Source: Clostridia bacterium (GTDB taxonomy: Bacteria; Bacillota; Clostridia; TANB77; CAG-465). From it: a stretch of DNA of 64,000 nt. Positions 5,641 to 30,282 of the stretch are shown here, one piece after another. The notes under the pieces were generated by a model that was not told the origin of the DNA, did no database searches, and saw only the letters and a program-made list of their open reading frames with translations. The DNA lies in assembly GCA_028684095.1 (NCBI GenBank), contig JAQUGQ010000007.1:13489-77488 (forward strand), read 5' to 3'. The position numbers and the translations under genes were made by a program. Each line of letters opens with the position of its first letter. Positions within the stretch are counted from its first letter, which is position 1.

Positions 5641-5654
5641 AATGACCCTCCTAA

Positions 5655-6497
5655 TTAATCTATAATAAATTTAACATTTTTAATAAAGTAGTTTGTTCCT
5701 CTATCATCTAACTTTTCTAATTCATATTCTATTAAAGGTAATTCATTTTTATACTCGTTTGCAATAGATGTAGCATCTAATTGTAGCCCATTCAATACAT
5801 ATTCTTTCATACTTTGTCTTATAATATCTTGGTTTGTTTCTTTGTCTGCATATAATTTAAATGTATTTTTAGTTGATATATATACGTGATTTAAATCATT
5901 AATGTCATATTCAACATTCAATGCATAAATAGTAAGTTTATAAGTCTTATCATTTTCTTTTAACTCTTTTACCACTTGAAATTCTTCGGCCGAACCAAAT
6001 CCCATCGGATATTTACAAAAGACATCAAATTCGCTACTATATCCTATAGGAAGACTAAATTTATCTTTTTTTACTATTTTAATACTAGTTCCAAATATTT
6101 CTTCTGCCGCCTTTTGAACTACATCTGATTTATAACCAAGAAATTCACCCCCACCAATTGTATAGTTAATAGAAGTACCTTGTTCTTTCTCTAAATTACA
6201 AATTGCTGCATATATAATATATTCGTCTGACATTTTATCTACACTATTTTGAAGATACTTAGGTACGAAATCAAATATTTCTTTCGCAAGCTGACTATTA
6301 ATATCTATATTTGAATATTCAGTTTTATATACATCAATATTTTTATTTTCTACAAAATTGTTTAATAAATCACTTTGAACAATATCTTTATTCTCATCTC
6401 CTAAACCACTATTTTTTGTGATTATATATGAAACTAATATCACAATAACTAATATAACAATTGTTACCATTGAAATAATCATGACTCTTTTATTCAT
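5655..6497 (-). CDS. hypothetical membrane-anchored protein
   Basis: Start moved to ATG 6497 (SD GGGTGA upstream). One N-terminal TM (IISMVTIVILVIVILVSYII) then a soluble domain. No motif recognised. Confidence 0.6.
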   Translation of the reverse strand: MNKRVMIISMVTIVILVIVILVSYIITKNSGLGDENKDIVQSDLLNNFVENKNIDVYKTEYSNIDINSQLAKEIFDFVPKYLQNSVDKMSDEYIIYAAICNLEKEQGTSINYTIGGGEFLGYKSDVVQKAAEEIFGTSIKIVKKDKFSLPIGYSSEFDVFCKYPMGFGSAEEFQVVKELKENDKTYKLTIYALNVEYDINDLNHVYISTKNTFKLYADKETNQDIIRQSMKEYVLNGLQLDATSIANEYKNELPLIEYELEKLDDRGTNYFIKNVKFIID

Positions 6498-6535
6498 TAA
6501 TATCACCCACAAACCTTATTATATACTATTTGACA

Positions 6536-6576
6536 TCTAAAAACAATGTTTTCTACAAAAAAACATTGTTTTTAGA
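6536..6576 (-). terminator. hairpin downstream of second acyl-CoA ligase gene
   Basis: TCTAAAAACAATGTT (6536-6550) pairs perfectly with AACATTGTTTTTAGA (6562-6576). There is no clean distal T-run on the minus strand. Confidence 0.5.
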
Positions 6577-6607
6577 TATTTTAATATAATATTTTCCGAT
6601 AATTATA

Positions 6608-8467: not shown

Positions 8468-8777
8468 AAATACACTCCCCTTTATATCATCCATTTTATC
8501 ATATATATTAATTAAAATCAACTATATTTATATAAATATATGTTAAGTCAAATAAATAAAAAACAAGATATTTTTTATTTAATAATTATCATTACACTAA
8601 AACCTAACATAATCACTAATTGTATATATCATATTTTATAATTTAATCATCCCCTTTACTAGTATATTGCATATTGATTATTTTATAATATATCTTTAAA
8701 TAATTCAAGTTTAATATTGAAGTAACCTACAATTCGTGATATAATTTAGAAAATACAAATTTAGAATGGAGAAATAA

Positions 8778-9530
8778 ATGTTACATAGATTCTCAAGAAC
8801 AGAGTTGTTATTAGGAAAAGTAAGTATGAAAAAATTGCAAAATAGTAAAGTAGCTATATTTGGTATTGGAGGCGTTGGTTCATATGCTGTTGAAGGATTA
8901 GCAAGAGCAGGTATAGGAAAATTTATTCTTATAGATGATGATAAAATATGCATTACTAACATTAATAGACAAATACATGCTACAAGTAAAACTGTAGGTG
9001 TAGAAAAAGTAGAAGCCATGAAAAATAGAATACTTGAAATAAATCCAAAAGCTGAAGTTATAACTCATAATACTTTTTTTAATATTGATAAAGCAGAAGA
9101 ACTTATTTCAATAGAATATGATTATATAATAGATGCAATTGATACAATTACTTCAAAATTAGATTTAATTGTTAAAGCAAAAGAAAAAAACATTCCCATA
9201 ATATCTAGTATGGGAGCCGGAAACAAATTAGATCCAACTAGATTTGAAATTGCTGATATAAACAAAACATCTATGTGCCCACTTGCAAAAGTTATCAGAC
9301 GTGAATTAAGAAAAAGAAATATATATTCACTTAAAACTGTTTATTCTAGAGAAGAACCTTTAACACCTATAAGTGAAGATGATAATTCATTTAAAAATAA
9401 TTGTATTTGTCCGAAAGAAACTGTTAAAAAATGTACTGTTAAAAGACAAATTCCTGGAAGTATATCTTTTGTACCTTCTGTTGTTGGATTAATAATTGCT
9501 TCAGAAGTAGTTAAAGATTTAACTACTTAA
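8778..9530 (+). CDS. tcdA: tRNA threonylcarbamoyladenosine dehydratase (ThiF/MoeB-like E1 fold)
   Basis: 250 aa. RFSRTELLLG start, Rossmann motif VAIFGIGGVGSYAVEGLARAGIG, and NINRQIHA. Confidence 0.75.
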   Translation: MLHRFSRTELLLGKVSMKKLQNSKVAIFGIGGVGSYAVEGLARAGIGKFILIDDDKICITNINRQIHATSKTVGVEKVEAMKNRILEINPKAEVITHNTFFNIDKAEELISIEYDYIIDAIDTITSKLDLIVKAKEKNIPIISSMGAGNKLDPTRFEIADINKTSMCPLAKVIRRELRKRNIYSLKTVYSREEPLTPISEDDNSFKNNCICPKETVKKCTVKRQIPGSISFVPSVVGLIIASEVVKDLTT

Positions 9531-15729: not shown

Positions 15730-15736
15730 TGTCGAA
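15730..15736 (+). promoter_or_regulatory. candidate Spo0A box (TGTCGAA)
   Basis: Exact 7-mer TGTCGAA, 46 nt upstream of the Wzz-like start codon in the divergent intergenic region. Confidence 0.3.
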
Positions 15737-15818
15737 ATATGTCACAACGTTCATTTATTATAACACATTTTACAGTATTATGTCAACAGTTTTCGGTAAT
15801 TACATCAACTTTTTATGT

Positions 15819-16584: not shown

Positions 16585-16602
16585 TTAATTTTATGGTATA
16601 AT
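16574..16602 (+). promoter_or_regulatory. sigma-A-type promoter for the large ncRNA
   Basis: -35 TTGCTT (16574-16579), 17-nt spacer, extended -10 TGGTATAAT (16594-16602). Confidence 0.5.
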
Positions 16603-16609
16603 ATATAAT

Positions 16610-17180
16610 TGATGGTGCATTATTCTAGTTGTACTGTCTATTATGAGGGTGGGGCTAAAAATCCACTAAAAGGCACATCGTTGAAGTTTCTTGTTTATGC
16701 GCAATACGCCCAGTTTTGTGTGTTTTCAGGGAGTAAAGGAACTAGGGTACGTTATAACGGCATATAGCTTATTCCCTAGTTTCGTGGAGACTTAATGTTT
16801 AATTAATTGAGTGTAACCTATACAAAGTGCCAAGACACAATGTATAGTGTAGCCTGTCTTGAGTGATAATATTGGGATTTATATTAAAAGTTTTAAAATT
16901 GTTGGCCATGATTTTTAGACTTATGATAATGAAACTATTGTTGCGAAAAAGACTAATAATAGATAACAGTATATTTATAGGAAAACTTCTAGGATGTTTG
17001 TTTTATTTAAAAGCAAGGTCTTTTAGGAATTAAGGTACGGAATTAAGTGGTGATCTAGTTTTCTTTTGGGTAACCGGAGAATTTTCTCTTTAAATGGAAA
17101 CGGCTAAACAGTAATGTTTAGTAGAGATTAGAGAAATTCTACTAGACCTAAACCGTAAAATTTACCTAATTTTCTACCAT
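16610..17180 (+). ncRNA. ole: large structured RNA, probable OLE (ornate large extremophilic) RNA
   Basis: About 570 nt with no credible ORF and visibly higher GC than its flanks. Many local helices: GGAACTAGGG/CCCTAGTTTC, CAAGACA/TGTCTTG, CTAAACA-GTAA-TGTTTAG (GNRA loop) and AGTAGA/TCTACT. A 4-TM protein gene follows immediately on the same strand. Ends are approximate. Confidence 0.55.
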
Positions 17181-17217
17181 CTAAATATTTTTTAATAGGG
17201 GTTGTAAATAATTTATA

Positions 17218-17790
17218 ATGGAAATAGCAGAAATAAAAGAAATTAAAAAGAAAAGAATTAAAAAAGAAAAAGTTGAAGATTCCACTCTTAAGTGGTTTAT
17301 ATCTATATTTGTTTTAACATTTATTTTATCTTTATTTTTTTCATATGTGTCAGCAGAATCAATAAAGGGCTTACCACTTATTCCAGCAATATTAATATTA
17401 ATTGTTGTTATATCAATAGGTGTATTATTCGATATTATTGGCGTAGCTGTAACGGTTGCAAAAGAAGATGAATTTCATGCTAAAGCAAGCAAAAAACTTA
17501 AAGGTTCTAAAACAGCTATCAAACTTATACGTAATGCACATAAAGTTTCTAATTTTTGTGCAGATGTGATAGGTGATATAGCAGGTGTTCTAAGTGGTGC
17601 CATAAGCGCTTTAATAGCACTTAAAATTACTGATGTATATGGTTTGAGTTTTAATATACAATTTTTAATTAGTGCTTTGGTTGCTTCACTAACGGTTGGT
17701 GGTAAAGCAATTGGTAAGATAATTGCAAGAAACAATACAACAAAAATAATTGCCGTAGTAAGCAAAATTTTACATTTTTTTAAGAAGTAA
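17218..17790 (+). CDS. oapA: four-TM membrane protein, probable OLE-associated protein A
   Basis: 190 aa (about 21 kDa). Basic N-terminus then four hydrophobic helices. Its position directly 3' of the OLE-like RNA matches the ole-oapA arrangement. Confidence 0.5.
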   Translation: MEIAEIKEIKKKRIKKEKVEDSTLKWFISIFVLTFILSLFFSYVSAESIKGLPLIPAILILIVVISIGVLFDIIGVAVTVAKEDEFHAKASKKLKGSKTAIKLIRNAHKVSNFCADVIGDIAGVLSGAISALIALKITDVYGLSFNIQFLISALVASLTVGGKAIGKIIARNNTTKIIAVVSKILHFFKK

Positions 17791-17896: not shown

Positions 17897-18709
17897 TTAC
17901 ATATTTGCTGCAGATTTTTCTTCTAATCTTAATTTATCTGCTATCATAGCTATAAACTCGGAATTTGTTGGTTTTCCTTTATTTGAATTAACTGTATAAC
18001 CAAATATTTTATCATGTACTTCTATTTGTCCTCTATTCCATGCTACTTCAATAGCATGTCTTATAGCTCTTTCTACCCTAGAAGGTGTTGTATCAAACAT
18101 ATGTGATAAATTTGGATATAAAACTTTTGTAACAGCATTAATAACATCCTCATTTTTAACAGTCATCATTATTGCTTCTCTTACATATTGGTATCCTTTT
18201 ATATGAGCAGGTACACCAACATCATGTATTGCATTTGTAACTCTTACTTCTAAACTTGTATTTAATCTTCTTGTATCTAATACATTATCTCTAGAACTAT
18301 ATCTGCTACTCACAACAGTTGTTGCATTATCAGGTGACATTAAATCTCTAACTCTTTCAGTTAAGCTCTTCATATCAAATGGTTTTACAACATAATATGT
18401 TGCTCCCAATGATATCGCTTTTTGAGTTATTCTTTCTTGACCTATTGAAGACATTACAATTACTAAAGGCATTTTAAATTCACACTCTTTAGACATTTCT
18501 TCTAAAACAGTTAACCCATCCTTTTCTGGCATTATTATATCTAATAATAATACATCCGGATTCATTTCTTTCATAAGCTTCATAGCATTTGTTCCATCAT
18601 ATGCATATGTAACAATTTCCATGTCTTCTTGAATATTAATATAGTCTTTAAGAAGCATTACAAACTCCTTATTATCATCCAGCACCATAACTTTTTTCTT
18701 TTGAACCAT
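17897..18709 (-). CDS. spo0A: sporulation master regulator Spo0A
   Basis: Start moved to ATG 18709 (SD GGGAGG). Receiver domain has [14 protein letters not shown] and KPF. C-terminal Spo0A-specific DNA-binding domain has [18 protein letters not shown] and [18 protein letters not shown]. Confidence 0.95.
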
Positions 18710-18804
18710 TTTATACCTCCCTACCTTATCTCTTAGTACATTATAATTATACACATTTTAATGTACTAAATCAAGGTTTTTCCTAAAAATTTACAATCGA
18801 GTTA

Positions 18805-18811
18805 TGTCGAA
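18805..18811 (+). promoter_or_regulatory. candidate Spo0A box upstream of spo0A
   Basis: Exact TGTCGAA about 96 nt upstream of the spo0A start codon. Confidence 0.35.
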
Positions 18812-18968: not shown

Positions 18969-19424
18969 TTATTTTATATTAATATTTTCAAATTCAATAC
19001 TTTTTTTAGAACTAAATTTAGTATTTAGAGCTATTATGGAATTATAAGGTATCATTAAATCTCTTACTCTGTCAATAAATTTTTTTATATTAAATGGTTT
19101 TATAAAATAATACATTGCTCCTAATGATATTGCATTTTGAATTATTTTAACGTGTGATATTGAAGACATTATAAACACCAACGGCATCTTAAATTCAAGC
19201 TCTTTAGATATTTCCTTTAATATCGTTAGCCCACTTTTTTCGGGCATTACTACATCTAATAATAATACATCTGGATTAGTTTTTTTTATCAGATTTATTG
19301 CATTTGTACCATCATATGCATAAGTAACAACCTCCATATCTTTTTGAGTATTTATATAATTTTTAAGAAGTATTACAAACTCCCTATTATCATCTAATAT
19401 CATGATCTTTTTCTTTTGATTCAT
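18969..19424 (-). CDS. receiver-domain-only paralogue of Spo0A (no DNA-binding domain)
   Basis: Start moved to ATG 19424 (SD GGAGG). 151 aa, with 88/128 identical residues to the Spo0A receiver in a hand-made gap-free alignment. DD, LLLDVVMPEKSG, MSS and KPF are retained. Confidence 0.85.
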   Translation of the reverse strand: MNQKKKIMILDDNREFVILLKNYINTQKDMEVVTYAYDGTNAINLIKKTNPDVLLLDVVMPEKSGLTILKEISKELEFKMPLVFIMSSISHVKIIQNAISLGAMYYFIKPFNIKKFIDRVRDLMIPYNSIIALNTKFSSKKSIEFENINIK

Positions 19425-19532
19425 ACTTACCTCCACACCTTATCTCTTAAATATTGCAACTCCTTATAATAAAATTGAAAAATTGCTTCTTTGCAAAGTT
19501 CATAAAATAGTTTTTTTAAATAAGTAATAACT

Positions 19533-20390
19533 CTACATTCCAGGCATACCTTCTCTATATTGTCCTCTTGTTTGCACTCCACCTATACCATCAATGCCTT
19601 CCCTTGTATTGGAAATTATGCTTGCAAGAGGAATAAATTTATCTACTGGTGTATATGCAATTGATTCAGCAACTATAAGCGGATCAAGCATATCTATAAG
19701 AACTCTTTTTGGAGCTGAAGCAAAATTTGCACCTGCAGATATTATTGCTTCATAATAGCTTTGACATGCACCTGCAAATATTACTAAATTATCTAAATTG
19801 TGCTCATATCTTCTGGCTTCTAGAACACCTTGTATAAAATATTTAGAATTTTTATAATTATTAATATTATACATATCATTTCTTTTTCTTAAGAAGGAAT
19901 CATGACCGGTAAGAATTAAAATATTGGGTCTTATTTTTTGAAGTAATGAATATACTTGTTTATATTGTTCTTCTTCACTAATATTGTATACATATGCAGT
20001 AAGACCCATCCTTTTATAATTTTCTCTACACTTTTCTGTATATTCAGCATCTCCATCTATATGTAATATTACACCTGGTTTTTTAAATATTTTTTCTTTT
20101 ACATATATATTTGGATTATCAACTATTGTATCCCTTATATTAAATTTTTTATTAATATTATAATAACATCTATCCATTCTTTTTCTTCTTGAGTCATCTA
20201 TTTTCTTCATTCTGTCTTTAGCTTCTGTTTCTGTTATATGTACCAAATCTGACATAGGTGAATCTGCAACAATTCTAACTGTAAGACCAGCTAAATCAAC
20301 AATATTTTTGTTTATACCTATTATTTTAAATAATATATCTAAATTATATGATTTTCTTGCAACTACATCACCTATTTTAAATGTATCCAT
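19533..20390 (-). CDS. yabG: sporulation-specific protease YabG
   Basis: 285 aa. Motifs FKIGDVVARKSYNLDILFKIIGI, HIDGDAEY, LILTGHD, VIFAGACQS and GANFASAP are collinear with B. subtilis YabG. Confidence 0.85.
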   Translation of the reverse strand: MDTFKIGDVVARKSYNLDILFKIIGINKNIVDLAGLTVRIVADSPMSDLVHITETEAKDRMKKIDDSRRKRMDRCYYNINKKFNIRDTIVDNPNIYVKEKIFKKPGVILHIDGDAEYTEKCRENYKRMGLTAYVYNISEEEQYKQVYSLLQKIRPNILILTGHDSFLRKRNDMYNINNYKNSKYFIQGVLEARRYEHNLDNLVIFAGACQSYYEAIISAGANFASAPKRVLIDMLDPLIVAESIAYTPVDKFIPLASIISNTREGIDGIGGVQTRGQYREGMPGM

Positions 20391-20446
20391 AAAGTAATCA
20401 CCTCCTAGGATATCTTATGATAAATTAAACTAGAAAGTGATTTTAT

Positions 20447-21157
20447 TTATAAACTTTTACATACATCAAGTTGTGTTAGTGATAATTTGTCTTTTTTATT
20501 ATTTACGAACTCTGTCATGTTGAGAATTATCTTTGATGCTTTCATTATATCACTATTCACTATACTTGTTTTTTGTTTTGATGATATTTCTTTGGCTATA
20601 TTATTTAATGTTGGTAAATCCATTTTATCATATGCTTTATACCATTCAGAACATAGTATTTTGAATTTTTCTTGTTTTAGGTCAACTTTTCTTATATCAT
20701 CATCAATCTTCAAAGAAAAACGTTTACTATTTATAAAATCTTTTGTTTCATTTGTAAATTTTGCTATAACATCTCCTAATATATTTCCCTTTAAATATTT
20801 ATTAGTAAATATATCTATACTAGCTACTAAAGCCTGTCTTAGTCCACCTTTAAAAGCTACTTCTTTAATTTTGTTTATATCCTTTATAACGTTAATAGGT
20901 GTACCAAGTATTTCTAATCCTTCTCTTATACTACTTGTTACTGCAGTTTGAACTATCTTTGTAAAATCCTTCGTTTTAAATGATTTCTTTATATCCAACA
21001 ATATATCTTTAACATTTTCTTGTATAGGCATTGCTTTCAAAATATAATCTGTACCCTTATCTATTACATTTACTACTATTTTATCAAATGCTTGTTTTTC
21101 TTTTGATAAATCTATATCTAAATTTTTGTTTGTTTTTCTTACTATTTCTAATTCCAT
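20447..21157 (-). CDS. hypothetical soluble protein, last gene of the secretion-ATPase operon
   Basis: 236 aa with no TM and no recognised motif. 2-nt gap to the upstream gene. The antisense ORF 20487-20951 has typical antisense composition. Confidence 0.6.
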   Translation of the reverse strand: MELEIVRKTNKNLDIDLSKEKQAFDKIVVNVIDKGTDYILKAMPIQENVKDILLDIKKSFKTKDFTKIVQTAVTSSIREGLEILGTPINVIKDINKIKEVAFKGGLRQALVASIDIFTNKYLKGNILGDVIAKFTNETKDFINSKRFSLKIDDDIRKVDLKQEKFKILCSEWYKAYDKMDLPTLNNIAKEISSKQKTSIVNSDIMKASKIILNMTEFVNNKKDKLSLTQLDVCKSL

Positions 21158-21159
21158 TT

Positions 21160-22068
21160 TTATTCCTCCATTTTATTTAATTTTATATACATATAGAATA
21201 TAAATATATACGATAATATATTTATATTTAAAACCAAGTTTCCTATAAATGTTTTTATCAATATAGTATAATATTCGTTATTCGTTAGAATAAAACCAAA
21301 TAATATATACATATTTAGTAGTATCAATACTATTAATACTAATTTAGAGGAAAATATATTTTGTTTTTCTTTTTCTTTTTGAAAATTAGTTTTCATTTGT
21401 ATTTTAGAAAATTTATCCAATAAGTTTCCAAAATCCCCACCATATATATAACAAAATTGAAGTAATGTTATAAATTGATTTATTTTTTTAATATTTACAC
21501 TTTTCTTTAAAGTTTCAAATGCATCATATATTTTGATCCCCTTCTGCACTGAAATATTAAACTTATTTATATATGTCTTTATCGGTTCTTCAACATTTGC
21601 TCTTCGAAATGCTTCTATTATATCATTATTCACATCTGTGTAATTTTTGAGACTTATAATATAATTTGGAAACATTCTTAATATTTTATTTTTTCTATAA
21701 TATGAAAAATACCTAATAATAAAATATGGGAGAAATAACATAAATGTAGAAAAAATTAGTGATGATGAAAATAAATGTAAGAAATTAAATGTAATTATAA
21801 ATGTTATTATAAAAATAACTATAGATAAAATTAAAATTGTTAATATAGAAATAATTTTGATATTACTGATTTTAAAAGATAAATTTGTTTCATCTATTAT
21901 ATATGATATTTTTTTTATAAATGATAGTTCTCTTATTTTATATATCATTTCACTCTTTAAATCAAGCATTATGTTTTTATATTTTTTTTGATTATAGAAA
22001 CTATCACAGATATATTGAATTATATAGTATATCGTAATTATCCCAATAATAGTAATAAGCATTTTCAT
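21160..22068 (-). CDS. polytopic membrane protein, TadB/TadC/GspF-like platform protein
   Basis: 302 aa. One N-terminal TM, TM pair, a ~110-aa cytoplasmic helical domain (FPNYIISLKNY...GGDFGNLLDKFSKIQ), then C-terminal TMs. This is T2SS-F-like topology directly after the CpaF-like ATPase. Confidence 0.55.
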   Translation of the reverse strand: MKMLITIIGIITIYYIIQYICDSFYNQKKYKNIMLDLKSEMIYKIRELSFIKKISYIIDETNLSFKISNIKIISILTILILSIVIFIITFIITFNFLHLFSSSLIFSTFMLFLPYFIIRYFSYYRKNKILRMFPNYIISLKNYTDVNNDIIEAFRRANVEEPIKTYINKFNISVQKGIKIYDAFETLKKSVNIKKINQFITLLQFCYIYGGDFGNLLDKFSKIQMKTNFQKEKEKQNIFSSKLVLIVLILLNMYILFGFILTNNEYYTILIKTFIGNLVLNINILSYIFIFYMYIKLNKMEE

Positions 22069-22073
22069 TGTTG

Positions 22074-23303
22074 TTATACACCTCCTTTACTTTTATAATA
22101 GTATAAATTTTCAAAATATTTACTTTCAATTTTTGTGTATGTTAATATAATTTTAATTATTGTTTTTTGTTTTTGTCTATCATAATAAACTTCTGCTATT
22201 TCATTTACTTTATAATCTTTCATAAATATTATATAATTAATACTACTCGAAAGCATCTGATTTACAAATTCTTCTTTATATGATTGTGCTTTTATATCTC
22301 TTTTTATTAGTGTTGTAAGTCTATCTAATGTATTATACACACCATCAGAATGTACTGTGGTAAGACCCATATGTCCTGTTGCTATACTGTCAAAGAATAC
22401 TAAAGCTTCAGCCCCTTTTAACTCACCTATAATTATTACATCATTAGACATAACTAAGCTATGCTTCATTAACTTATCTAAAGTAATTTTCTTGGATTCC
22501 TCTCTGTTTTCTAAAATTTCTCTTTGAATTACATTTTTACCTTCTATAAATAGTTCCATAGTTTCCTCGTTTGTTGTTATAGCAATATTATCTGAAATTT
22601 TATTTATCAAAGCCCTAAGTAAAGTTGTTTTTCCACTTCCGCCTTTACCACAAATCACAATATTTTTTTGTTTAATTATAAAATTATTTAGTAAAATATA
22701 TATATCAAAATTTATCATTTCATCTATTAAAAATAATCTTTCTAAATTAACATTTGTATCATTTCTATGTATACGAATAACTAAACTAGGTGAAAATACA
22801 TTAACGGGAGGTAATCCAGCTTCAATTCTTAAATTATATTTTTTATCACTTACAATTATCATTGGAACATCAAAGTTAATATTTTTATTATTTTTTAGTA
22901 TACAATATCTAACATAATCGTAAAATTCTGTTTCTGATTCAAATGTAGAGTTTGTTTTTTTCCATTTACCTCTAGATTTAATATATATATCATTATATTT
23001 TACAACTCTAATATCACTTATATCCTTATTATCTATATACATTTGTAATATGTCATAACCAAACATTTTATTAAATATATTATTGATAACTTTTTGTATA
23101 TTTTCTGTATCATTCAAACTATACTTGTTATATAAATATTTTTCTATTACATTTATCAAAACTTCTTTATCCTCATTTTTTAAATTTTCTAAGTAATTAT
23201 CAATTAAATATTTCTGTAAATCTTTAATATTTATATTTTCAAGGTTTTTATTTGTAATATTTTCTTCTTGAGATTTAGTGGTTTTAAATGGATTTATTAT
23301 CAT
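22074..23303 (-). CDS. TadA/CpaF/VirB11-family secretion ATPase
   Basis: 409 aa. Walker A ICGKGGSGKTTLL, Asp box/Walker B VIIIGELKGAEA, His box ATGHMGLTTVHS. Confidence 0.85.
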   Translation of the reverse strand: MIINPFKTTKSQEENITNKNLENINIKDLQKYLIDNYLENLKNEDKEVLINVIEKYLYNKYSLNDTENIQKVINNIFNKMFGYDILQMYIDNKDISDIRVVKYNDIYIKSRGKWKKTNSTFESETEFYDYVRYCILKNNKNINFDVPMIIVSDKKYNLRIEAGLPPVNVFSPSLVIRIHRNDTNVNLERLFLIDEMINFDIYILLNNFIIKQKNIVICGKGGSGKTTLLRALINKISDNIAITTNEETMELFIEGKNVIQREILENREESKKITLDKLMKHSLVMSNDVIIIGELKGAEALVFFDSIATGHMGLTTVHSDGVYNTLDRLTTLIKRDIKAQSYKEEFVNQMLSSSINYIIFMKDYKVNEIAEVYYDRQKQKTIIKIILTYTKIESKYFENLYYYKSKGGV

Positions 23304-24546
23304 ATCTCATTTTCACTTCCTTTGTAATAAACATAGATATAATCTTCTTTTTAATGTTGTTTTTATCACGATTATTTAAATAATTTACACCCAAGCTTTT
23401 AATTATTTCTTTTTCATTTAATTTAGAATTTATATTACTTACTGCTCCATTTATATATCCTTCTATATTAAATTCAAAATCTACTATCGATACAATTTTA
23501 TAACCTTCCAACAAATTTGTAATTTGAGAAATATCTAATGAATTCTTTTGTTTTTTATTTATTATTATGAATATATTATTTCTGGAAATTCCCCAAAGCT
23601 TTGTCATAAGTTCTAAATATTTAATACCTTGTCTTAAACTTATGTAATTAGGATTGATAACAAAAAATATGGTTGAAGAAATGTTTAAAGTATATCTCAC
23701 AACATCTATAAATGGAGATGATGGCAAATCAACTATAACATAATCATATTTGTTAATTGTACTGAAATATATTTTTTTATAATAATCAGTATTCAACTTA
23801 TTTTGACATTCAAAAATACTAGAATTATTAGTCATATACCATAATTTTTTGTTATTTTTATCCTTATACATATATTTATTTACAATATCATTTATATCTC
23901 TTTTATTGTCTATATCTTCTATCATCTGTGATAATATATTTCCTGATCCATTTAGATTATTATATATATCTATGCAAGGATTTTGTATATCCATATCAAG
24001 CATAGCAACTTTTATTTTTAATTTATTACATAGCGATTTTGATAATAATCCTGAAATATATGATTTTCCTGAACCACTTGTCCCATATATAGATATAAAT
24101 TGCTTTGGTACAACCGTGGCCTCAATTTTTTTATCTTCAGTTTTAGCGTTTGGTAAATTATTAATATTATTTTTATATATAACTTTATCATTACTATTAA
24201 TACTTTCTACTATATCAGTTATTTCTATTTCTTTTCCTTCTATAACATTAAATATTTGATTAGCAAATAAAAACTCTTTATATTGTTCGTCCAAATATTC
24301 TGTCAAAAGTATAATTTTAACATTATCATTGGCCAATCGTATCTGCTTTATGTATAATTCTTTTGCTAAATTTCCATTTAAACTATCTTTTGTAATCAAT
24401 ATTATACTCATATTGGTTTCTCTTTGTTTACTTAAATATTCAATAACACCTTCCATATATGATATATCATGTGGATATACTTCATTAATATATATTTCAT
24501 CTATTTTTTGTTTAATATATTCATTATCTATTGCTAAAACTATCAA
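23284..24546 (-). CDS. TadZ/CpaE-like ATPase (receiver-like N-domain + MinD/ParA-type domain)
   Basis: 420 aa. TTG start behind AGGGGGAA. N-terminal ~120 aa is receiver-like. Deviant Walker A SIYGTSGSGKSYISG, plus YDYVIVDLP. Confidence 0.7.
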   Translation of the reverse strand: MIVLAIDNEYIKQKIDEIYINEVYPHDISYMEGVIEYLSKQRETNMSIILITKDSLNGNLAKELYIKQIRLANDNVKIILLTEYLDEQYKEFLFANQIFNVIEGKEIEITDIVESINSNDKVIYKNNINNLPNAKTEDKKIEATVVPKQFISIYGTSGSGKSYISGLLSKSLCNKLKIKVAMLDMDIQNPCIDIYNNLNGSGNILSQMIEDIDNKRDINDIVNKYMYKDKNNKKLWYMTNNSSIFECQNKLNTDYYKKIYFSTINKYDYVIVDLPSSPFIDVVRYTLNISSTIFFVINPNYISLRQGIKYLELMTKLWGISRNNIFIIINKKQKNSLDISQITNLLEGYKIVSIVDFEFNIEGYINGAVSNINSKLNEKEIIKSLGVNYLNNRDKNNIKKKIISMFITKEVKMRYDNKSI

Positions 24547-26291
24547 TTTTCATTCCCCCTTATTAATTTATCTTCATAATCATTTGACTTTACATTTAAA
24601 TTTATTACATTACTTTGAAATAACATAAGCATGCTCCCTTTATTTAATCTTGTAATTTCACTTAACTCATATGTATTTAATATACCAGTTTTAGCTAATA
24701 TTTCCGAATCTGTATATTCCATTTTAAAAAACATTTTAATAAAAGAATTATTAATTATACTTTTACCATAAGTCCCCAAATCTTTACTAAAAAAATCACA
24801 TACATCTTGGGTTATAGTTACTATGCCTGCGTTTAATTTACGTATCGTTTTAAATAGCATAAATATTTGCTGAGCAGAGAATGAATTATCATAAATAAAT
24901 TTCCATACTTCATCAATATATATTATTGCTTTTTCATTTGAATTTGTCATTCTTTTAATAATTTCATCAAGAATAATTTTAAATAATATATTAGTCATCT
25001 TTACATTTAATTTATTTAAGTTAAACACTATTAATTTATTACTTAAATCTATAGTTGTTCTTCTATTTAAAAACATATAGTCTATTAACATCTGTTCAAA
25101 ATTCATAATCAGCTTTTTAAAACCTTTATTATTTATAGTTGTGTTAGATTTTAAATTTTTGTATACATCTTCTAATATTGGCATATATGTTGAATCTTTA
25201 ATAACTTTATTTAGATATATTTTGTTGCTACTTGATACTGTATACATATTAATTACATCATCATTGATTCCCTTATCTAAATATGATTTTTTAATTGCCA
25301 TAATTATATCTGTTTTATAATTCACTTCAATATTTAATATTTTATCCAAAAATTCATATACTATATTTATTTTCTTGTAAAGAAAATTTTTTTCTGTTAT
25401 ATCTATTTCATCTATATCTAATATATTTAAAAATGTATTACATTCATTATTAAAATTAATATATTCTCCACCAACCTCAGAAGCAATATTTATATATTCT
25501 CCTTCTGGATCAAATATATATTGTTTTATATTTATAATATATTGCCTTAATATAAGTAATTTAACAAAATATGATTTACCAGAACCACTACTTCCAAATA
25601 TACAAATATTTGAATTAGTATATTTATTACTAAAAATATCTATATTACATATTTTTTTATTATAACTTGTATATCCAAATATAACACCATTTTTATCAAA
25701 AACTGTATCAGTGTAAAACGGGAAAATATTTACAACATTACTTGTAGTCATATTTGAATAACATGATTTAGTAATACTTTCATCTAAAAAATTTAATGGT
25801 AGAGTTGATAAATATCCTTGCATATGTCTAAAATTAAGTGCAATTGATATTAGCATTTTTGAATATAATATACTCCTAAACTTTTTTGTAGTATATAAAA
25901 TGTCATTTTTATTATTACTTTTAATAGATATATATGTATATGTATTATAAACTTGTTCATTATTAATTTGAATTTCATATCTTAACTTTTTAGCATCTGA
26001 TGTTAACTTATCTAAAATATCTACATCAATTTGATTATTGTTAATTGTATTTCTTTCTGACTTAGAATTCGATATATTATATGTAAGTTCTTTTAAAACT
26101 TTAATAGTGTCTAGTTTTTGTATAAATATACTCATATCAAAATGAATATCTTTAGGTAAACTATTCATTAATTCTAAAAATTTCATTCTTTTTGGATAGT
26201 TTATAATACATATTGTAGCAATATATTTTCCATCAATGTTTATATATTTAAAATTTGTGTTATCTATAAATCCAGGATAAAAATTCAACAT
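24543..26291 (-). CDS. VirB4/TrsE/TraE-type conjugation ATPase, C-terminal (ATPase) part
   Basis: 582 aa. Motifs CIFGSSGSGKSYFVKLL, IFDPEGEY, AIIYIDEVWKF and GIVTITQDV. Confidence 0.8.
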   Translation of the reverse strand: MLNFYPGFIDNTNFKYINIDGKYIATICIINYPKRMKFLELMNSLPKDIHFDMSIFIQKLDTIKVLKELTYNISNSKSERNTINNNQIDVDILDKLTSDAKKLRYEIQINNEQVYNTYTYISIKSNNKNDILYTTKKFRSILYSKMLISIALNFRHMQGYLSTLPLNFLDESITKSCYSNMTTSNVVNIFPFYTDTVFDKNGVIFGYTSYNKKICNIDIFSNKYTNSNICIFGSSGSGKSYFVKLLILRQYIINIKQYIFDPEGEYINIASEVGGEYINFNNECNTFLNILDIDEIDITEKNFLYKKINIVYEFLDKILNIEVNYKTDIIMAIKKSYLDKGINDDVINMYTVSSSNKIYLNKVIKDSTYMPILEDVYKNLKSNTTINNKGFKKLIMNFEQMLIDYMFLNRRTTIDLSNKLIVFNLNKLNVKMTNILFKIILDEIIKRMTNSNEKAIIYIDEVWKFIYDNSFSAQQIFMLFKTIRKLNAGIVTITQDVCDFFSKDLGTYGKSIINNSFIKMFFKMEYTDSEILAKTGILNTYELSEITRLNKGSMLMLFQSNVINLNVKSNDYEDKLIRGNEN

Positions 26292-26839
26292 ATATTGTCA
26301 ACCTTATTTGATTTTGAATATAAGAAATTATCCAATTTTACTTTACCTTCTATTTTTTCTATAAACACACCTATTTTACACAAATTATATATATTTTTAG
26401 ATATTTCTTCTATGCTATTCCCATCAATTACTGTTAAGACAATATAATAATTATTTATGTATATATTATTTTCATTTAAAGATTTTTCAAGTTCACTTTT
26501 ATATTTTTGGACTAACTTGTTTTTATTAATATTTTTATCATCTAAAGTAATATTATCAAAATAACTATTAATATTAACTTCTGTATTTTCAATATATATT
26601 TGAAAATCACAATTCATACTTCTTAAAAATTCAGTATACAAAGTTATTATATTTTTACTTATTGATTCAGTTATATTAAGTATTGTAATAGGTTCAACTT
26701 TATATATATGTATTTGCTTCAAAATACTAAGTCTTCTAATCAATATACAATTATCATTTATGTCTATAACATCATATACTTTAGATATATCATCATATAT
26801 ACTGTTTTTCATAAATTTGTTTTTTATTAAATTAAGCAT
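26285..26839 (-). CDS. protein resembling the N-terminal domain of VirB4-type ATPases (split gene)
   Basis: 184 aa. Its stop overlaps the next start as ATGTTGA (26285-26291). The pattern ILIRRLSILKQIHIYKVEPITILN...EFLRSMNCDFQIYIEN resembles Gram-positive VirB4 N-termini. 184 + 582 = 766 aa, close to full VirB4 length. Confidence 0.55.
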   Translation of the reverse strand: MLNLIKNKFMKNSIYDDISKVYDVIDINDNCILIRRLSILKQIHIYKVEPITILNITESISKNIITLYTEFLRSMNCDFQIYIENTEVNINSYFDNITLDDKNINKNKLVQKYKSELEKSLNENNIYINNYYIVLTVIDGNSIEEISKNIYNLCKIGVFIEKIEGKVKLDNFLYSKSNKVDNIC

Positions 26840-26920
26840 TTTTCACCTCTCATTTTTATCACACTTTTTATTAAAGTGCATATAATTACAATATATAAAC
26901 TTTTAAGGGGGTTGATGTAT

Positions 26921-27097
26921 ATGAGTAACATGAATAACATGTTAAATTCTAAGTTATTAGAACTACTGTCTGGGGTTGATAGAAGTAAAATTGAACAAGT
27001 AGGAAAAATGGTAAGTGGCATGTCAAAAGAAGACTTAAATAATTTAGTTGGAATGCTGAACAAAAATATGAATAATAACTCACAAGATAGAAAATAA
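26921..27097 (+). CDS. small hydrophilic protein (58 aa)
   Basis: Start moved to ATG 26921, 9 nt after GGGGG (26907-26911). MSNMNNMLNSKLLELLSGVDRSKIEQVGKMVSGMSKEDLNNLVGML. Divergent from the ATPase operon. Confidence 0.5.
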   Translation: MSNMNNMLNSKLLELLSGVDRSKIEQVGKMVSGMSKEDLNNLVGMLNKNMNNNSQDRK

Positions 27098-27107
27098 GTG
27101 ATTTGAA

Positions 27108-27548
27108 ATGGAAAACAATGATAATAATTATTTATTTGAATTAATACAAAGCATTCAATCTAAATTAAGTGAAGAAAAACCGTCAAATTCAAAAGAAGAG
27201 AAAATTAACACAGATTACATACAAGAAACTATGTTCAAAAATGAACAAAAAAAAGAAAGTAAAAAAGATAGCAGTAATTTTAATTTGTCTGATGTGCTGA
27301 ATAATTTTAATTTATCTGGTTTACTTGGAAACAATGATTCTGGATTTGATATAAACAATATAATGAAAATTCAGAAGATTTTATCAGCAATGGGAAGAGA
27401 TGATCCTAGAAAAAATTTACTTATTTCTTTAAAACCTTTTCTTAGAAAATCAAGACAAGAAAAAATAAATGAGTATTTAACATACTTAACTATTGGAAAT
27501 GCATTAGGTATATTTGATGATAAAGGGAGTGATACTGATGTTACATAA
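27108..27548 (+). CDS. hypothetical protein (146 aa)
   Basis: Low-complexity N-half. Conserved-looking C-half DDPRKNLLISLKPFLRKSRQEKINEYLTYL. 11-nt overlap with the next ORF. Confidence 0.55.
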   Translation: MENNDNNYLFELIQSIQSKLSEEKPSNSKEEKINTDYIQETMFKNEQKKESKKDSSNFNLSDVLNNFNLSGLLGNNDSGFDINNIMKIQKILSAMGRDDPRKNLLISLKPFLRKSRQEKINEYLTYLTIGNALGIFDDKGSDTDVT

Positions 27549-27906
27549 TAATTATTTTAATAATTATATACCAAATAATATGTACTATCGACCATCTCCC
27601 ATTTATCCTCCTATAGAAAAAAAACCAATAAACGACAAAACAGTTAATATCCAAGATACAATCATCAACGATAAATCCAAAGAATGTGCAAGTGAATCTA
27701 ACACATTAAACAAAGACAGATTGTCTTTGTTTGGATTATCCCTTAATATTGATGACATAATAATTATAGGTCTTATAATTTTTCTGTTCATGGAAAACAG
27801 AAGAGATTACTTATTACTTATAATCCTCGGTTTAATGTTTTTCGATATTTCGATAGATACATTTAAAAGTATGAATATTGTAAAGAAGCTATTTAACCCC
27901 GGTTAA
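27538..27906 (+). CDS. hypothetical membrane protein (122 aa)
   Basis: Start moved to ATG 27538 (SD AAAGGGAG). N/Y/P-rich N-terminus, two C-terminal TM helices (IIIIGLIIFLF and LLLIILGLMFF). Confidence 0.55.
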   Translation: MLHNNYFNNYIPNNMYYRPSPIYPPIEKKPINDKTVNIQDTIINDKSKECASESNTLNKDRLSLFGLSLNIDDIIIIGLIIFLFMENRRDYLLLIILGLMFFDISIDTFKSMNIVKKLFNPG

Positions 27907-28041
27907 TCCATATTGATTATAATATTCAATTATCAATTTATCTATCGCTGTACTAGTCTTATATATTTTTTCATATTCTTCATTATTAATTATCTGATTG
28001 TCTAATCTATTTTTTAATTCAACAATCTTTTCTTCAACCAT
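27889..28041 (-). CDS. unlisted Spo0E-like small protein (aspartyl-phosphate phosphatase family candidate)
   Basis: Below ORF-track cutoff. ATG 28041 sits behind GGAAGGGTGATTAG. Translation is MVEEKIVELKNRLDNQIINNEEYEKIYKTSTAIDKLIIEYYNQYGLTGVK. It has the helix-loop-helix layout and a TSTAIDKLIIEY segment like the Spo0E SQELDxLI motif. Confidence 0.5.
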   Translation of the reverse strand: MVEEKIVELKNRLDNQIINNEEYEKIYKTSTAIDKLIIEYYNQYGLTGVK

Positions 28042-28120
28042 CTAATCACCCTTCCTGTAAATATAATACCATTTTATGACATGTATGTCAATATATGTTG
28101 TCATTTTTTCGGTCGCAAGT

Positions 28121-28127
28121 TTCGACA
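28121..28127 (-). promoter_or_regulatory. candidate Spo0A box upstream of Spo0E-like gene
   Basis: TTCGACA on the plus strand (TGTCGAA on the gene strand), 80 nt upstream of the ATG at 28041. Confidence 0.35.
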
Positions 28128-28249
28128 AAAAATGCAAATTTATACCTTTTTACATTAGAATTATATGCAAATAATTAGCTTTATATACTCAAATTAGATA
28201 CAAATTTATAAATAATTATATCTACGGTGTATGAGTTTGAAAAGTTATT

Positions 28250-28603
28250 TTATTGGCTTTTTAAATTGCAAATTATTAATGCTATAAGCACTAAAAAAAT
28301 TGCTATAATTTGATTTAATTTAGGTAATTCCTTAAAGAAAAAATAATCTATTATTACATACGAAAAAACTCCTACAGATAAATATATTATTGTTATTGGT
28401 AGCATTTCTCCAAGCACTTTATATCCTTTATTAAAAGTAAAAGTAACTAATAAATTTAGCAAAAATGTTAGTGGTATAATATATAAATTATATAATACCA
28501 AATTTCTAACTGTTGGTTCAATGTTTTTAGATTGGTAAAAATTTATTGCTCCAAACGCACAATAAGCAAGTATAAAACAAATAGTTATTATTATATATCT
28601 CAT
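28250..28603 (-). CDS. small four-TM membrane protein
   Basis: 117 aa, four hydrophobic helices. No motif recognised. Confidence 0.55.
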   Translation of the reverse strand: MRYIIITICFILAYCAFGAINFYQSKNIEPTVRNLVLYNLYIIPLTFLLNLLVTFTFNKGYKVLGEMLPITIIYLSVGVFSYVIIDYFFFKELPKLNQIIAIFLVLIALIICNLKSQ

Positions 28604-28788
28604 ATTAATTACACCTTTCTTGTTAAAATTTAATATATTAAATTTATATATTATAATAATTTAATTATATACTTTTAAAACTTTTTTGTCAATATACTGT
28701 TGTATATTTTGAAAATTTTAATTATTATCTATAAAGTATAAAAAAAGATGCCCTAAAATAATTTCTAGGACATTTTTTAAAAAATTAA

Positions 28789-30282
28789 TTATTTCGTATT
28801 TAGAACCCTTTGTTCTTGTGTCATTACAGCTAGTGCTCTGACATTATCTATATTTAAACATAATTTATCTGATATTCTAGTTCCTAAATTTACATCAGTC
28901 TTATAGAATAATGCAGTCATTCTATATTGCAATTTTAAATCAGCTAACTTTAAACTGCCACATATATTATTAATAAGTATTTCTTTCTGTTTATCATTCA
29001 TTACTCTTCTATATAATTCACCTGGTTGTTCGAAATCTATATCTGATGATGGATATGTATGTCTCTGTATGAAGCCAGAAACATCAAAATCTGGTGTTCT
29101 ATATTTTTCATCAGTATAAACATCCTCGTAACTATTTGGAAAATAGTTAAGTTTAGTATTACCTTGTGAAGTGTCTGCCATATCACCATCTTTTTGATAT
29201 GTTGTCATAGGACTTTTAGGTTTATTTACAGCAAGTTCGTTTACATTTGCCCCAATTCTATGTCTATGTGCATCTGGATATGCCATAATTCTACCTTGTA
29301 GCAATTTATCAGGTGATGGCCCTATTCCATTTACAAAATGTGATGGAGAGAATGCTACTTGTTCTATATCAGTATAGAAATTCTGTGGATTTCTATTAAG
29401 TACCATTCTTCCAAGTGGAATAAGTGGATAGTCTTTATGATACCATACTTTAGTAGGATCAAAAGGATCAAATCTATATTTTTTTGCTTCTTCAATACTC
29501 ATTATTTGTACATATACTTTCCATGATGGATAGTTACCACATTTTATGTTGTCATATAAGTCACTCATTGAACTATCTGGATTTGTGCCTGATAATTTAG
29601 TAGCTTCTTCATCAGTCCAATTTTCAATACCTTGTTCAGTCTTGAAATGATATTTTACCCAACAATATTTGTTTTTTTCATTATACCACATAAATGTATT
29701 TGTTCCAAATCCGTGCATATGTCTAAATCCTTTAGGTGTTCCTCTATCTGAAAATAGTATTATAACTTGATGCATAGATTCTGGTGTAAGTGAAAAAAAA
29801 TCCCACACCATATTAGGGTTTTTAAGATTGTTTTTTGGATCTCTTTTTTGTGTATGTATAAAATCAGGAAATTTCATAGCATCACGTATAAAGAAAACTG
29901 GTGTATTATTGCCTACTAAATCATAGTTACCATCTTCTGTATAGAATTTAAGTGCAAAACCCCTTGGATCTCTAGCGCTATCTGATGAACCTTTTTCGCC
30001 ACCAACTGTTGAAAATCTAGCTATCATTTCAGTTTTTTTGCCTACATTTGATAAAAATTTTGCACACGTGTATTTACTTAAATCATTTGTAACTTCAAAA
30101 TATCCAAATGCCCCTGATCCTTTTGCATGTACTACTCTTTCTGGTATTCTCTCCCTATTAAAATGTGCTAGTTTATTCATCATATAAGTATCTTCTATTA
30201 CTGTTATACCAGGTATACCTGTAGATAAAGAAAAATTATCGTTTGATATTGCATTTCCTAACTCATCTGTTAATTTTCTCAT
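28789..30282 (-). CDS. katA: monofunctional heme catalase
   Basis: 497 aa. Motifs FNRERIPERVVHAKGSGAFGYFEVT, RFSTVGGEKGS and DPRGFALKF, with a tyrosine-ligand region. Confidence 0.95.
   Translation of the reverse strand: MRKLTDELGNAISNDNFSLSTGIPGITVIEDTYMMNKLAHFNRERIPERVVHAKGSGAFGYFEVTNDLSKYTCAKFLSNVGKKTEMIARFSTVGGEKGSSDSARDPRGFALKFYTEDGNYDLVGNNTPVFFIRDAMKFPDFIHTQKRDPKNNLKNPNMVWDFFSLTPESMHQVIILFSDRGTPKGFRHMHGFGTNTFMWYNEKNKYCWVKYHFKTEQGIENWTDEEATKLSGTNPDSSMSDLYDNIKCGNYPSWKVYVQIMSIEEAKKYRFDPFDPTKVWYHKDYPLIPLGRMVLNRNPQNFYTDIEQVAFSPSHFVNGIGPSPDKLLQGRIMAYPDAHRHRIGANVNELAVNKPKSPMTTYQKDGDMADTSQGNTKLNYFPNSYEDVYTDEKYRTPDFDVSGFIQRHTYPSSDIDFEQPGELYRRVMNDKQKEILINNICGSLKLADLKLQYRMTALFYKTDVNLGTRISDKLCLNIDNVRALAVMTQEQRVLNTK

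Follow-up and report, generated by a model that had tools for sequence, protein, structure and literature searches.

A split VirB4 and Tad-type operon fixed near the replication origin of uncultured gut Clostridia: a possible conjugation apparatus recruited to the Spo0A regulon

VirB4 is the universal marker of type IV secretion, and its presence is normally taken as evidence of a mobile element. How such a protein should be read when it stands in a chromosomal operon together with genes of the Tad pilus type is the question raised by the locus described here. The window (the whole stretch of DNA analysed, 64,000 nucleotides long; NCBI GenBank assembly GCA_028684095.1, contig JAQUGQ010000007.1, positions 13,489 to 77,488 of the forward strand) comes from Clostridia bacterium (Bacillota; Clostridia; TANB77; CAG-465). 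Within it, six minus-strand open reading frames (ORFs) at 26839-20447 encode a VirB4 in two parts, three Tad-type proteins and an orphan that we call protein X. A sequence-only reading had taken this operon to be a chromosomally fixed hybrid machine with a developmental role. On balance we favour the explanation that it is a domesticated conjugation/Tad apparatus recruited to the Spo0A regulon, in uncultured, very low-G+C, sporulation-competent gut Clostridia. The six genes, with product lengths in amino acids (aa), are as follows.

26285..26839, minus strand: VirB4 N-terminal-domain protein, 184 aa, encoded apart from the motor
24543..26291, minus strand: VirB4-type motor ATPase, 582 aa, active-site motifs intact
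23284..24546, minus strand: TadZ-like protein, 420 aa, TTG start, with an atypical receiver-like N-domain and a MinD/ParA-fold NTPase
22074..23303, minus strand: CpaF/TadA-type secretion ATPase, 409 aa (T2SSE, E 2e-27)
21160..22068, minus strand: TadB/TadC-like polytopic platform protein, 302 aa, with a single T2SSF domain
20447..21157, minus strand: protein X, 236 aa, a soluble all-helical orphan that belongs to the invariant core

Rechecking of ORF coordinates, translations and junctions left the gene map of the sequence-only reading, including its quoted peptide motifs, unchanged, and its family calls (VirB4, TadZ, CpaF/TadA and TadB) were upheld by profile hidden Markov model and structure-profile searches. 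The genes are packed as one coupled unit: the stop of the 184-aa gene overlaps the next start in ATGTTGA (26285-26291), the TTG start of the 420-aa gene lies over the stop of the 582-aa gene in TTGA (24543-24546), the 420- and 409-aa genes overlap by 20 nucleotides (nt; 23284-23303), and the junctions 409/302 and 302/236 are gaps of 5 nt and 2 nt respectively.

The motor protein has its closest relatives among conjugative VirB4s. It carries the Pfam P-loop_TraG/DUF87/AAA_10 domains; its best NCBIfam model is NF045971, VirB4-like CD1110 (positions 195-734 of 752, E 7e-56, 190 bits against a cutoff of 325), TraC-F matches at E 1e-36, and its best solved structure is the C-terminal domain of a Thermoanaerobacter VirB4 (4AG5, E 1e-39). 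Walker A (GSSGSGKS), Walker B (DE) and TQD are invariant across all three operon architectures (tiers 1 to 3, defined below; alignment A1). The upstream 184-aa protein matches TIGR00929 VirB4_CagE weakly (positions 19-133, E 8e-4, 17.8 bits against a cutoff of 643), its orthologues carry PF26593 TraC-like, and in every tier the motor gene has a separate N-domain gene (140-230 aa) ahead of it. Judged from their sequences, the two proteins together are one VirB4, which differs from the one-polypeptide form in that N-domain and motor are separate and score under the curated whole-protein cutoffs. The split noted in the sequence-only reading is real, but it is a conserved native state and not a frameshift: the 582-aa protein has more than 2,400 homologues, of which the top 120 span 354-612 aa and almost all measure 566-612 aa (about 580), so that a large family has its VirB4 natively split.

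The 420-aa protein has the architecture of TadZ. Its N-terminal 120 aa are receiver-like, with no conserved phospho-acceptor aspartate, and its NTPase domain matches CbiA (E 1e-6) and the profiles of MinD (4V03, E 4e-15) and a ParA-family protein (3EA0, E 7e-15); G155, G160, K161, D184, D273 and N330 are invariant across tiers. The assignment to the MinD/ParA type thus holds for the fold, but not for the P-loop: GTSGSGKS is a classical Walker A, and the deviant KGGxxGK[ST] with its signature lysine is absent. In all tiers the P-loop reads G-[TVA]-S-G-x-G-K-[ST]; it resembles that of the VirB4 of the same operon, and there is a DUF87 match (E 5e-5). By eye, an amphipathic helix like that of MinD could be made out at the C-terminus, in tier-1 sequences alone.

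Among solved structures the 409-aa protein is closest to CpaF (8RKD, E 7e-22), followed by archaeal GspE, VirB11 and FlaI, and its NCBIfam matches to VirB11, TadA and TrbB all fall under the curated cutoffs. The 302-aa protein reaches 30.7 bits for T2SSF, just over the cutoff of 25.2, and matches the annotated T2SSF protein of the Vallitalea plasmid pVpro, discussed below, with phmmer (E 3e-18). A second T2SSF paralogue, as in a TadB plus TadC pair, was found neither among the ORFs of the window nor in searches of related loci.

Protein X, in which the sequence-only reading had seen no recognisable motif, indeed belongs to no family in Pfam, NCBIfam or PADLOC. An AF2 model built from a 30-sequence alignment (pLDDT 84.7) has 11 helices. 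X is homologous to the last gene of the related modules found between gyrB and gyrA (hhalign 95%). Its profile collects 152 clusters at 50% identity among 1.84 billion representatives, nearly all of them stand-alone proteins of about 240 aa, with a few longer matches that have no Pfam domains; on sequence criteria X is a rare, clade-restricted family. A weak match to P0381, a saposin-repeat protein of 2,524 aa (E 1e-10, seven stretches), is probably an artefact of composition or helical repeats, because X does not have the saposin cysteines.

How the operon is distributed bears most directly on whether it is mobile. When GTDB was scanned with one genome for each species, relatives of the split VirB4 turned up in at least 511 species; those among the matches listed are uncultured gut 'Clostridia bacterium' metagenome-assembled genomes or Clostridium sp. 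CAG:793, CAG:921 and CAG:1219. We then scored the presence or absence of operon and neighbouring genes in 85-87 loci fetched around VirB4 relatives (L numbers below). The operon recurs in the same core synteny (a Peptidase_M16 pair, YqeY, glycosyltransferase 4, RpiB, low-molecular-weight phosphatase and ParB) at 38-79% protein identity, with 42-47% for some whole-operon relatives, and intact ORFs with invariant catalytic residues are kept across at least 80 species-level loci at 36-79% identity.

Three architectures can be told apart. Tier 1 has all six genes (14 loci plus the window, L089 and L090). Tier 2 (about 10 loci) has the tier-1 synteny minus the CpaF-like and TadB-like genes. Tier 3 has four genes, for the N-domain protein, motor, TadZ-like protein and X, in the arrangement dnaN-recF-gyrB-[module]-gyrA next to oriC; 30 loci show gyrB as well as gyrA, and 49 of 59 show one of these genes or both, an arrangement confirmed with Pfam on L025. 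The TadZ-like protein occurs in all three architectures, whereas the CpaF-like gene is present in 14 of 85 related loci, always together with the TadB-like gene. In a rough neighbour-joining tree of VirB4 the chromosomal family is monophyletic with respect to plasmid VirB4s, tier 3 is sister to tiers 1 and 2, and tier 2 is nested twice inside tier 1, which indicates that the CpaF/TadB pair was lost at least twice. Since this pair has been lost repeatedly and is absent from the gyrB-gyrA modules, the invariant core consists of the split VirB4, the TadZ-like protein and X. The hybrid composition on which the sequence-only reading had built its definition of the machine is therefore not its defining trait: CpaF and TadB are dispensable.

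Plasmid VirB4s are at most 27% identical to the chromosomal family, full-length, and set in ordinary type IV secretion system (T4SS) contexts; in a phage collection, matches at about 25-27% identity came from unannotated faecal contigs only. In the window, dnaA-dnaN-recF-gyrB starts at 47145 and the GC skew switches at about 46-47 kb, which places the operon about 20 kb from oriC. The operon is vertically inherited, chromosomally fixed and origin-proximal.

The search for the missing parts of a conjugative element or pilus gave the same picture as the sequence-only reading, which had covered some 8 kb on either side. With queries from real plasmid systems, VirD4, VirB6/TrbL, PrgI, PcfJ, integrase, SAF and pilin gave 0 matches in the window and within 10 kb in the 87 loci. 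No relaxase appeared among the neighbours in general Pfam and NCBIfam scans, a search made without dedicated MOB profiles. Neither bounding direct repeats nor an adjacent tRNA were found at the operon, and its neighbours are housekeeping genes. No pilin-like leader came out of a regular-expression search through every ORF of 30 aa or more in the window (its sole match was a false positive inside dnaA), and no peptidase_A24 prepilin peptidase is present among the annotated neighbours. As judged by coupling protein, VirB6/VirB3 channel, integrase and att repeats, the operon is thus neither a conjugative T4SS nor an integrative and conjugative element (ICE). One claim of that reading fell: base composition does not resemble that of the neighbouring genes, the operon having a G+C content of 0.20-0.22 against 0.24-0.28 in the flanks, i.e. 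3-6 points lower.

If the operon is a fixture of the chromosome, what links it to sporulation? The window carries several sporulation genes. The protease gene yabG lies 56 nt past the last operon stop; spo0A (TIGR02875, 358 bits), a receiver-only Spo0A paralogue and a Spo0E-like gene are also neighbours, all as the sequence-only reading had it, and a site scan of 19400-28300 found no terminator-like hairpin. Further on, ftsA-ftsZ-spoIIGA-sigE stand in classical order (59495-63577, plus strand; SigE 337 bits, SpoIIGA weak at 63 bits). Spo0A, YabG and this cluster show that the organism has sporulation machinery, and the presence of SigE and SpoIIGA that mother-cell regulators are kept. Adjacency to yabG and spo0A, from which a developmental role had been argued, is confined to the subclade of the window (window, L089, L090, L012 and L014) and absent elsewhere, and yabG has in the 56-nt gap its own sigma-K-like -10 element, CATAagaTA, with AC 17 nt upstream (read by eye). 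That part of the argument is lost; the link itself stands on a conserved Spo0E-like gene and the promoter cassette in front of it.

28113..28127, minus strand: operator TGTCGAAACTTGCGA, a perfect 0A-box match plus a second, degenerate box; sole exact match to the operator sequence in the window
28063..28091, minus strand: sigma-A-type promoter TTGACA-17-TATTAT, TG-extended (-35 at 28091-28086, -10 at 28068-28063), downstream of the operator
27889..28041, minus strand: Spo0E-like gene, 50 aa, on the operon strand; always adjoins the small-gene unit described below

The promoter at 28063-28091 is the top promoter-like site in 19400-28300 (11 of 12 matches) and faces the Spo0E-like gene and then the operon. 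The sigma-70 scan that returned it is otherwise uninformative, because 111 sites were found where 100.6 are expected in such AT-rich DNA; only the top site was used. The Spo0E-like assignment rests on a weak match to PF09388 SpoOE-like in the L090 orthologue and on a visible S-x-x-[IL]-D-x-L motif, with orthologues in 25 loci. In tiers 1 and 2 the cassette consists of a 15-mer, TGTCGAAAnTTGCGA, about 22 nt upstream of TTGACA-17-(TG)TATAAT-like hexamers. The 15-mer, with at most 1-2 mismatches, stands upstream of the Spo0E-like gene in essentially all tier-1 and tier-2 loci, and in about 15 of them the operator recurs in front of the VirB4 N-domain gene. In Bacillus and C. difficile the established 0A box is TGTCGAA, found about 75-78 nt upstream of spo0A and sigH in the latter (PMC3485338). 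Of 43 tier-3 loci, 28 carry one or more exact TGTCGAA boxes in the 340 nt that precede the module, where 0.03 would be expected per region; these boxes all share one orientation and many are in tandem with 10-bp phasing, e.g. TGTCGAATTTTGTCGAA, with three boxes in L027. Cassette or 0A boxes therefore stand before the Spo0E-like gene, the operon module or both in all three architectures: a conserved cis-element matching the Spo0A box is common to the family. Spo0A itself would bind at TGTCGAAACTTGCGACC and at the tandem boxes of tier 3, to judge by the match to the known box.

Exact 0A boxes in the window number 5, against 1.8 expected, and the others are all intergenic. A tandem, TGTCGAAATATGTCA, at 15730-15744 (plus strand) lies between a Wzz/capsule operon and a nuclease gene; one at 18805-18811 (plus) is upstream of spo0A, and two, at 46900-46906 (minus) and 47068-47074 (plus), are just upstream of dnaA in the oriC region.

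Tiers 1 and 2 further share a unit of three small genes, sm73-sm146-sm130, that diverges from the operon and is followed by the Spo0E-like gene on the operon strand.

26858..26886, plus strand: likely promoter of the unit, ATCACA-17-TATAAT (promoter scan), filling the 75-nt gap at the operon start
26915..27097, plus strand: sm73, a small helical protein, first of the unit (likely start ATG 26915 within ORF 26876-27097)
27108..27548, plus strand: sm146, whose N-terminal helix is joined by a low-complexity linker to a conserved three-helix domain at the C-terminus
27514..27906, plus strand: sm130, rich in Tyr and Asn at the N-terminus and ending in a two-helix membrane hairpin

Orthologues of sm73 (51-71 aa) and sm146 are present in all tier-1 and tier-2 loci, those of sm73 in the same position, and orthologues of sm130 in 22 loci. 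The 91 homologues of sm146 are all unnamed and from the same clade; its AF2 model is of low confidence (pLDDT 58.8). An element ATTATATGCA-N14/15-TGTGAT is kept at the small-gene promoter in all tier-1 and tier-2 loci. The three small proteins may belong to the machine, and a VirB3-like role for sm130 would be pure speculation; none of the three was detected beside the gyrB-gyrA modules of tier 3. In L009 a 6.6-kb insertion (2782-9428), with an apparent toxin-antitoxin-like pair and an ankyrin-repeat-like ORF (by reading the sequence only), separates the unit from the VirB4 operon, so that the two can be physically uncoupled. A 30-nt inverted repeat (26877-26906 / 28140-28169, 77% complementary) brackets the small genes, the Spo0E-like gene and the cassette, and may be no more than a pair of similar promoters in opposed orientation, or else a mark left by an inversion or insertion.

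A possible ancestry for the module is suggested by the best plasmid match of the CpaF-like protein (33% identity, E 1e-35), which is on pVpro of Vallitalea pronyensis (NZ_CP058650.1; L088/L091). There a small membrane protein, PrgI/VirB3, a 253-aa ORF overlapping a 599-aa VirB4 motor (again split), a VirB6-like polytopic protein, an M23 hydrolase, receiver-like and ParA-like proteins and T2SSE are encoded together with two T2SSF proteins, pilin-like genes and a SAF/CpaB-like protein, while other parts of the plasmid encode VirD4, PcfJ, SSB and a recombinase. Split VirB4 with overlapping genes, TadZ-type, CpaF-type and T2SSF proteins follow one another in the same relative order as in the window; the operon in the window has none of PrgI/VirB3, VirB6-like protein, M23 hydrolase, second T2SSF, pilin-like genes, SAF/CpaB-like protein, VirD4, PcfJ, SSB and recombinase. 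MOB-suite classes pVpro as non-mobilizable; its transfer region may stand for a type of monoderm conjugation apparatus not yet described. As a complete hybrid it indicates that 'VirB4 + Tad' machines exist as conjugation-type systems in Clostridia. The combination to which the sequence-only reading drew attention is thus not unprecedented, a second precedent being PAPI-1 among the chimeras of T4SS and type IV pilus (PMC12857230). In PAPI-1, too, VirB4 works with a type IV filament machine, but VirD4 and the channel and pilin components are retained (PMC12857230).

Relative to monoderm conjugative T4SSs (MPF_FA/FATA; CD1110, PrgJ-like) the motor and N-domain are homologous, but the operon VirB4 is at most 27% identical, under the curated cutoffs, in two polypeptides and chromosomal, and VirB3, VirB6, VirB8, VirB1, VirD4 and relaxase are missing from the operon. 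With Tad/Flp (type IVc) pili it shares TadZ-TadA-TadB homologues in canonical order, CpaF as closest structure and the receiver plus MinD/ParA architecture; it differs in having no Flp pilin, prepilin peptidase, pseudopilin or CpaB in the region, one TadB/C paralogue, a classical Walker A in the TadZ-like protein, coupling to VirB4, and TadA and TadB that are dispensable in most of the family. The SpoIIIA-SpoIIQ 'feeding tube', a sporulation-specific and sigma-E-dependent apparatus that borrows the secretion-type ATPase SpoIIIAA and the GspF-like SpoIIIAB, is a conceptual analogue in being both developmental and secretion-derived; unlike it, the operon has no SpoIIIA match in NCBIfam and no ring or channel proteins, and is associated with Spo0A/sigma-A rather than sigma-E. 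Relaxase-less, chromosomal and vertically inherited T4SS relatives are known from Patescibacteria, where they lie near dnaA (PMC12102498), and from ComB and archaeal Ced/Ted, some being origin-proximal; these keep channel and pilin parts. None of these, nor PAPI-1, has been reported with a TadZ-type NTPase, an X-like protein or Spo0A-box control. Literature searches on VirB4/TadZ/sporulation, VirB4-like/CpaF/Firmicutes and Tad pilus/conjugation in monoderms found no description of the operon.

Under the explanation that we favour, a monoderm 'VirB4 + Tad' conjugation apparatus, whose complete mobile form would be of the pVpro kind, lost every gene for DNA processing, channel, wall hydrolase and pilin. 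What would remain is a two-polypeptide VirB4, a TadZ-type NTPase and X, here joined by the CpaF/TadA ATPase and the TadB/C platform protein, with three NTPases that are apparently active. The module would have been wired to the Spo0A regulon by 0A boxes upstream of a sigma-A promoter shared with the gene for a Spo0E-like phosphatase, and Spo0A~P would switch the genes on at stationary phase or sporulation entry. The TadZ-like NTPase might then direct the machine to a particular place on the membrane, the platform there would be formed by CpaF and TadB, and a VirB4 hexamer, docked via the N-domain protein, could drive the assembly or translocation of a macromolecule with ATP; X would be an adaptor or cargo.

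Several observations weigh against this. The core contains no integral membrane protein and CpaF/TadB have been lost repeatedly, a poor fit to an envelope-spanning secretion machine, and no substrate, pilin or channel was identified in the window or the 87 loci. X has no fold relative under E 0.3 in the PDB or among BFVD viral structures. Neither X nor the N-domain protein has an hhalign match of at least 40% probability to any pVpro ORF, and the VirB4 of the window is no closer to that of pVpro than to other Clostridia plasmid VirB4s; for these reasons descent from a hybrid of the pVpro kind is no more than plausible. Regulation raises difficulties as well. An operon-proximal 0A cassette is absent in the window, L089, L090, L024, L012-14, L019 and L010. 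In the window the cassette occurs once, before the Spo0E-like gene and 1.2 kb upstream of the operon start, with no other TGNCGAA between operator and operon, so that Spo0A could act on the operon only through a transcript running on antisense to the three small genes, unless its control has been lost; transcription of the operon would start at a weak local promoter or come through from that of the Spo0E-like gene. Moreover, the second half-operator in tiers 1 and 2 is degenerate and partly palindromic, which makes another regulator possible.

The first of these points is also where a different explanation gains ground, namely that the module handles chromosomes. Here VirB4, a member of the FtsK/HerA superfamily, would act with a ParA/MinD NTPase and X on DNA at the onset of sporulation, with no secretion involved; it could anchor origins, segregate chromosomes or pump DNA into the forespore. 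The core persists without CpaF/TadB, and the module is always by oriC, some 20 kb from dnaA in the window and flanked by gyrB and gyrA in at least 30 species. DNA-handling machines commonly have partners of the ParA/MinD type, and the Spo0A regulon of Bacillus includes chromosome-remodelling genes. A DNA-handling role is kept open because of the core without a membrane protein and the oriC location, but we hold it to be unlikely: the best matches of the motor are conjugative VirB4s, a clade for which we know of no case of DNA translocation by VirB4 itself, no DNA-binding domain was detected in the operon proteins with Pfam and NCBIfam, and the canonical TadZ-TadA-TadB block of tier 1 points to a membrane machine.

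DNA uptake or donation in stationary phase by a relaxase-less, T4SS-derived system like ComB of H. pylori, archaeal Ced/Ted or the Neisseria gonococcal genetic island also strikes us as unlikely, and as a less likely account than domestication for a developmental role. A chromosomal, vertically inherited VirB4 with neither relaxase nor type IV coupling protein fits known exaptations (PMC12857230, PMC9905601), the relaxase-less T4SS of Patescibacteria near dnaA offers a precedent (PMC12102498), and control of the Spo0A type would suit DNA exchange at that stage. Against it, no VirB6-, VirB3- or CedA-like channel or pilin is present in or near the operon in the 87 loci; most lineages have only soluble or peripheral proteins, and no competence genes are linked.

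Could the Tad-type genes simply be an ordinary Tad/type IVc pilus locus, with pilins and prepilin peptidase encoded elsewhere and VirB4 an unrelated neighbour? TadZ-TadA-TadB are in canonical order, and gut Clostridia of the TANB77 type, which are uncultured and have reduced genomes, have been reported with Tad pilins elsewhere (PMC11680825). That pilus cluster, however, is a separate and complete locus with no VirB4, having its own CpaB, TadZ (231 aa), CpaE (280 aa), TadA (640 aa), fused TadC-TadB (693 aa) and pilin-like genes (PMC11680825). In the operon, the VirB4 genes are translationally coupled to the TadZ-like gene, VirB4, TadZ-like protein and X persist where CpaF/TadB are lost, there is one T2SSF paralogue, and the 64 kb hold no pilin. 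Also less likely than domestication, a remote-pilin Tad locus is improbable on these grounds.

Two further possibilities are contradicted by the data and very improbable. A decaying ICE or plasmid remnant with no present function would account for the lower G+C content, the split VirB4 and the missing relaxase, coupling protein and channel genes, but not for ORFs that are intact with invariant catalytic residues in a fixed core-genome position, for a split that is universal and occurs also in the functional-looking system of pVpro, or for the lack of integrase, att-like repeats and adjacent tRNA. Anti-phage defence built on a HerA/DUF87-type ATPase, a kind found in several defence systems, is suggested by PADLOC matches that are generic and at ATPase level only (mad8, weak at E 2e-14; HerA; PtuA), but four of the six operon proteins have no match and no system signature appears for the five besides the ATPase, the locus is fixed and syntenic in hundreds of species rather than in variable islands, and the motor's best matches are conjugative VirB4 and not HerA.

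Some features of the surrounding DNA deserve mention in their own right. The receiver-only Spo0A paralogue (155 aa, 18969-19436, minus strand; Spo0A model E 3e-37) and spo0A (17897-18754, minus) share a repeat of 300 nt that is 77% identical (18292-18591 / 19007-19306), indicating that the paralogue arose by tandem duplication of the 5' half of spo0A; within the phosphorelay it could serve as a decoy or as a sink for phosphate. A staphylococcal-nuclease-like gene and spo0A flank a full-length OLE RNA (16596-17196, plus; Rfam RF01071, 346.5 bits), followed by an ORF of 190 aa (17218-17790, plus) with no family match that may encode an OapA partner; OLE RNAs have been reported from the gut clades TANB77 and RF39, and they show a correlation with sporulation genes (PMC11332333). 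Between the Peptidase_M16 pair and the Spo0E-like gene stand genes for a catalase (497 aa) and a 117-aa membrane protein (28250-30282, minus), an insertion absent from distant relatives such as L001; the catalase is common to L089, L090 and L024. MiaB is encoded by two overlapping ORFs (56082-56909, plus, 275 aa, model positions 1-227 of 437; 56893-57507, plus, 204 aa), which could be due to a frameshift, an assembly error or a real split.

Returning to the domestication of a conjugation apparatus, exapted machines derived from T4SSs are already known, and this operon would be a fresh instance; complete 'VirB4 + Tad' hybrids are documented on Clostridia plasmids. VirB4 here belongs to a set of genes, by the origin, that is core and vertically inherited in hundreds of uncultured gut species, and annotation of the CONJScan type should not count such loci as decayed ICEs. 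The compact core of four proteins (N-domain protein, motor, TadZ-like protein and X) is suited to structural and biochemical study. A bolder proposition, which we put forward tentatively, is that split VirB4, TadZ-like protein and X are a lineage-wide and previously unrecognised component of Spo0A-controlled sporulation entry, a domesticated conjugation motor for which macromolecule transfer across the septum and origin or chromosome handling are candidate roles; it would be comparable in kind to SpoIIIA-SpoIIQ or SpoIIIE, with an independent origin. If the link to Spo0A is true, the operon would be a new case of a conjugation machine recruited into cell development, and a new, testable player in sporulation in a clade not yet grown.

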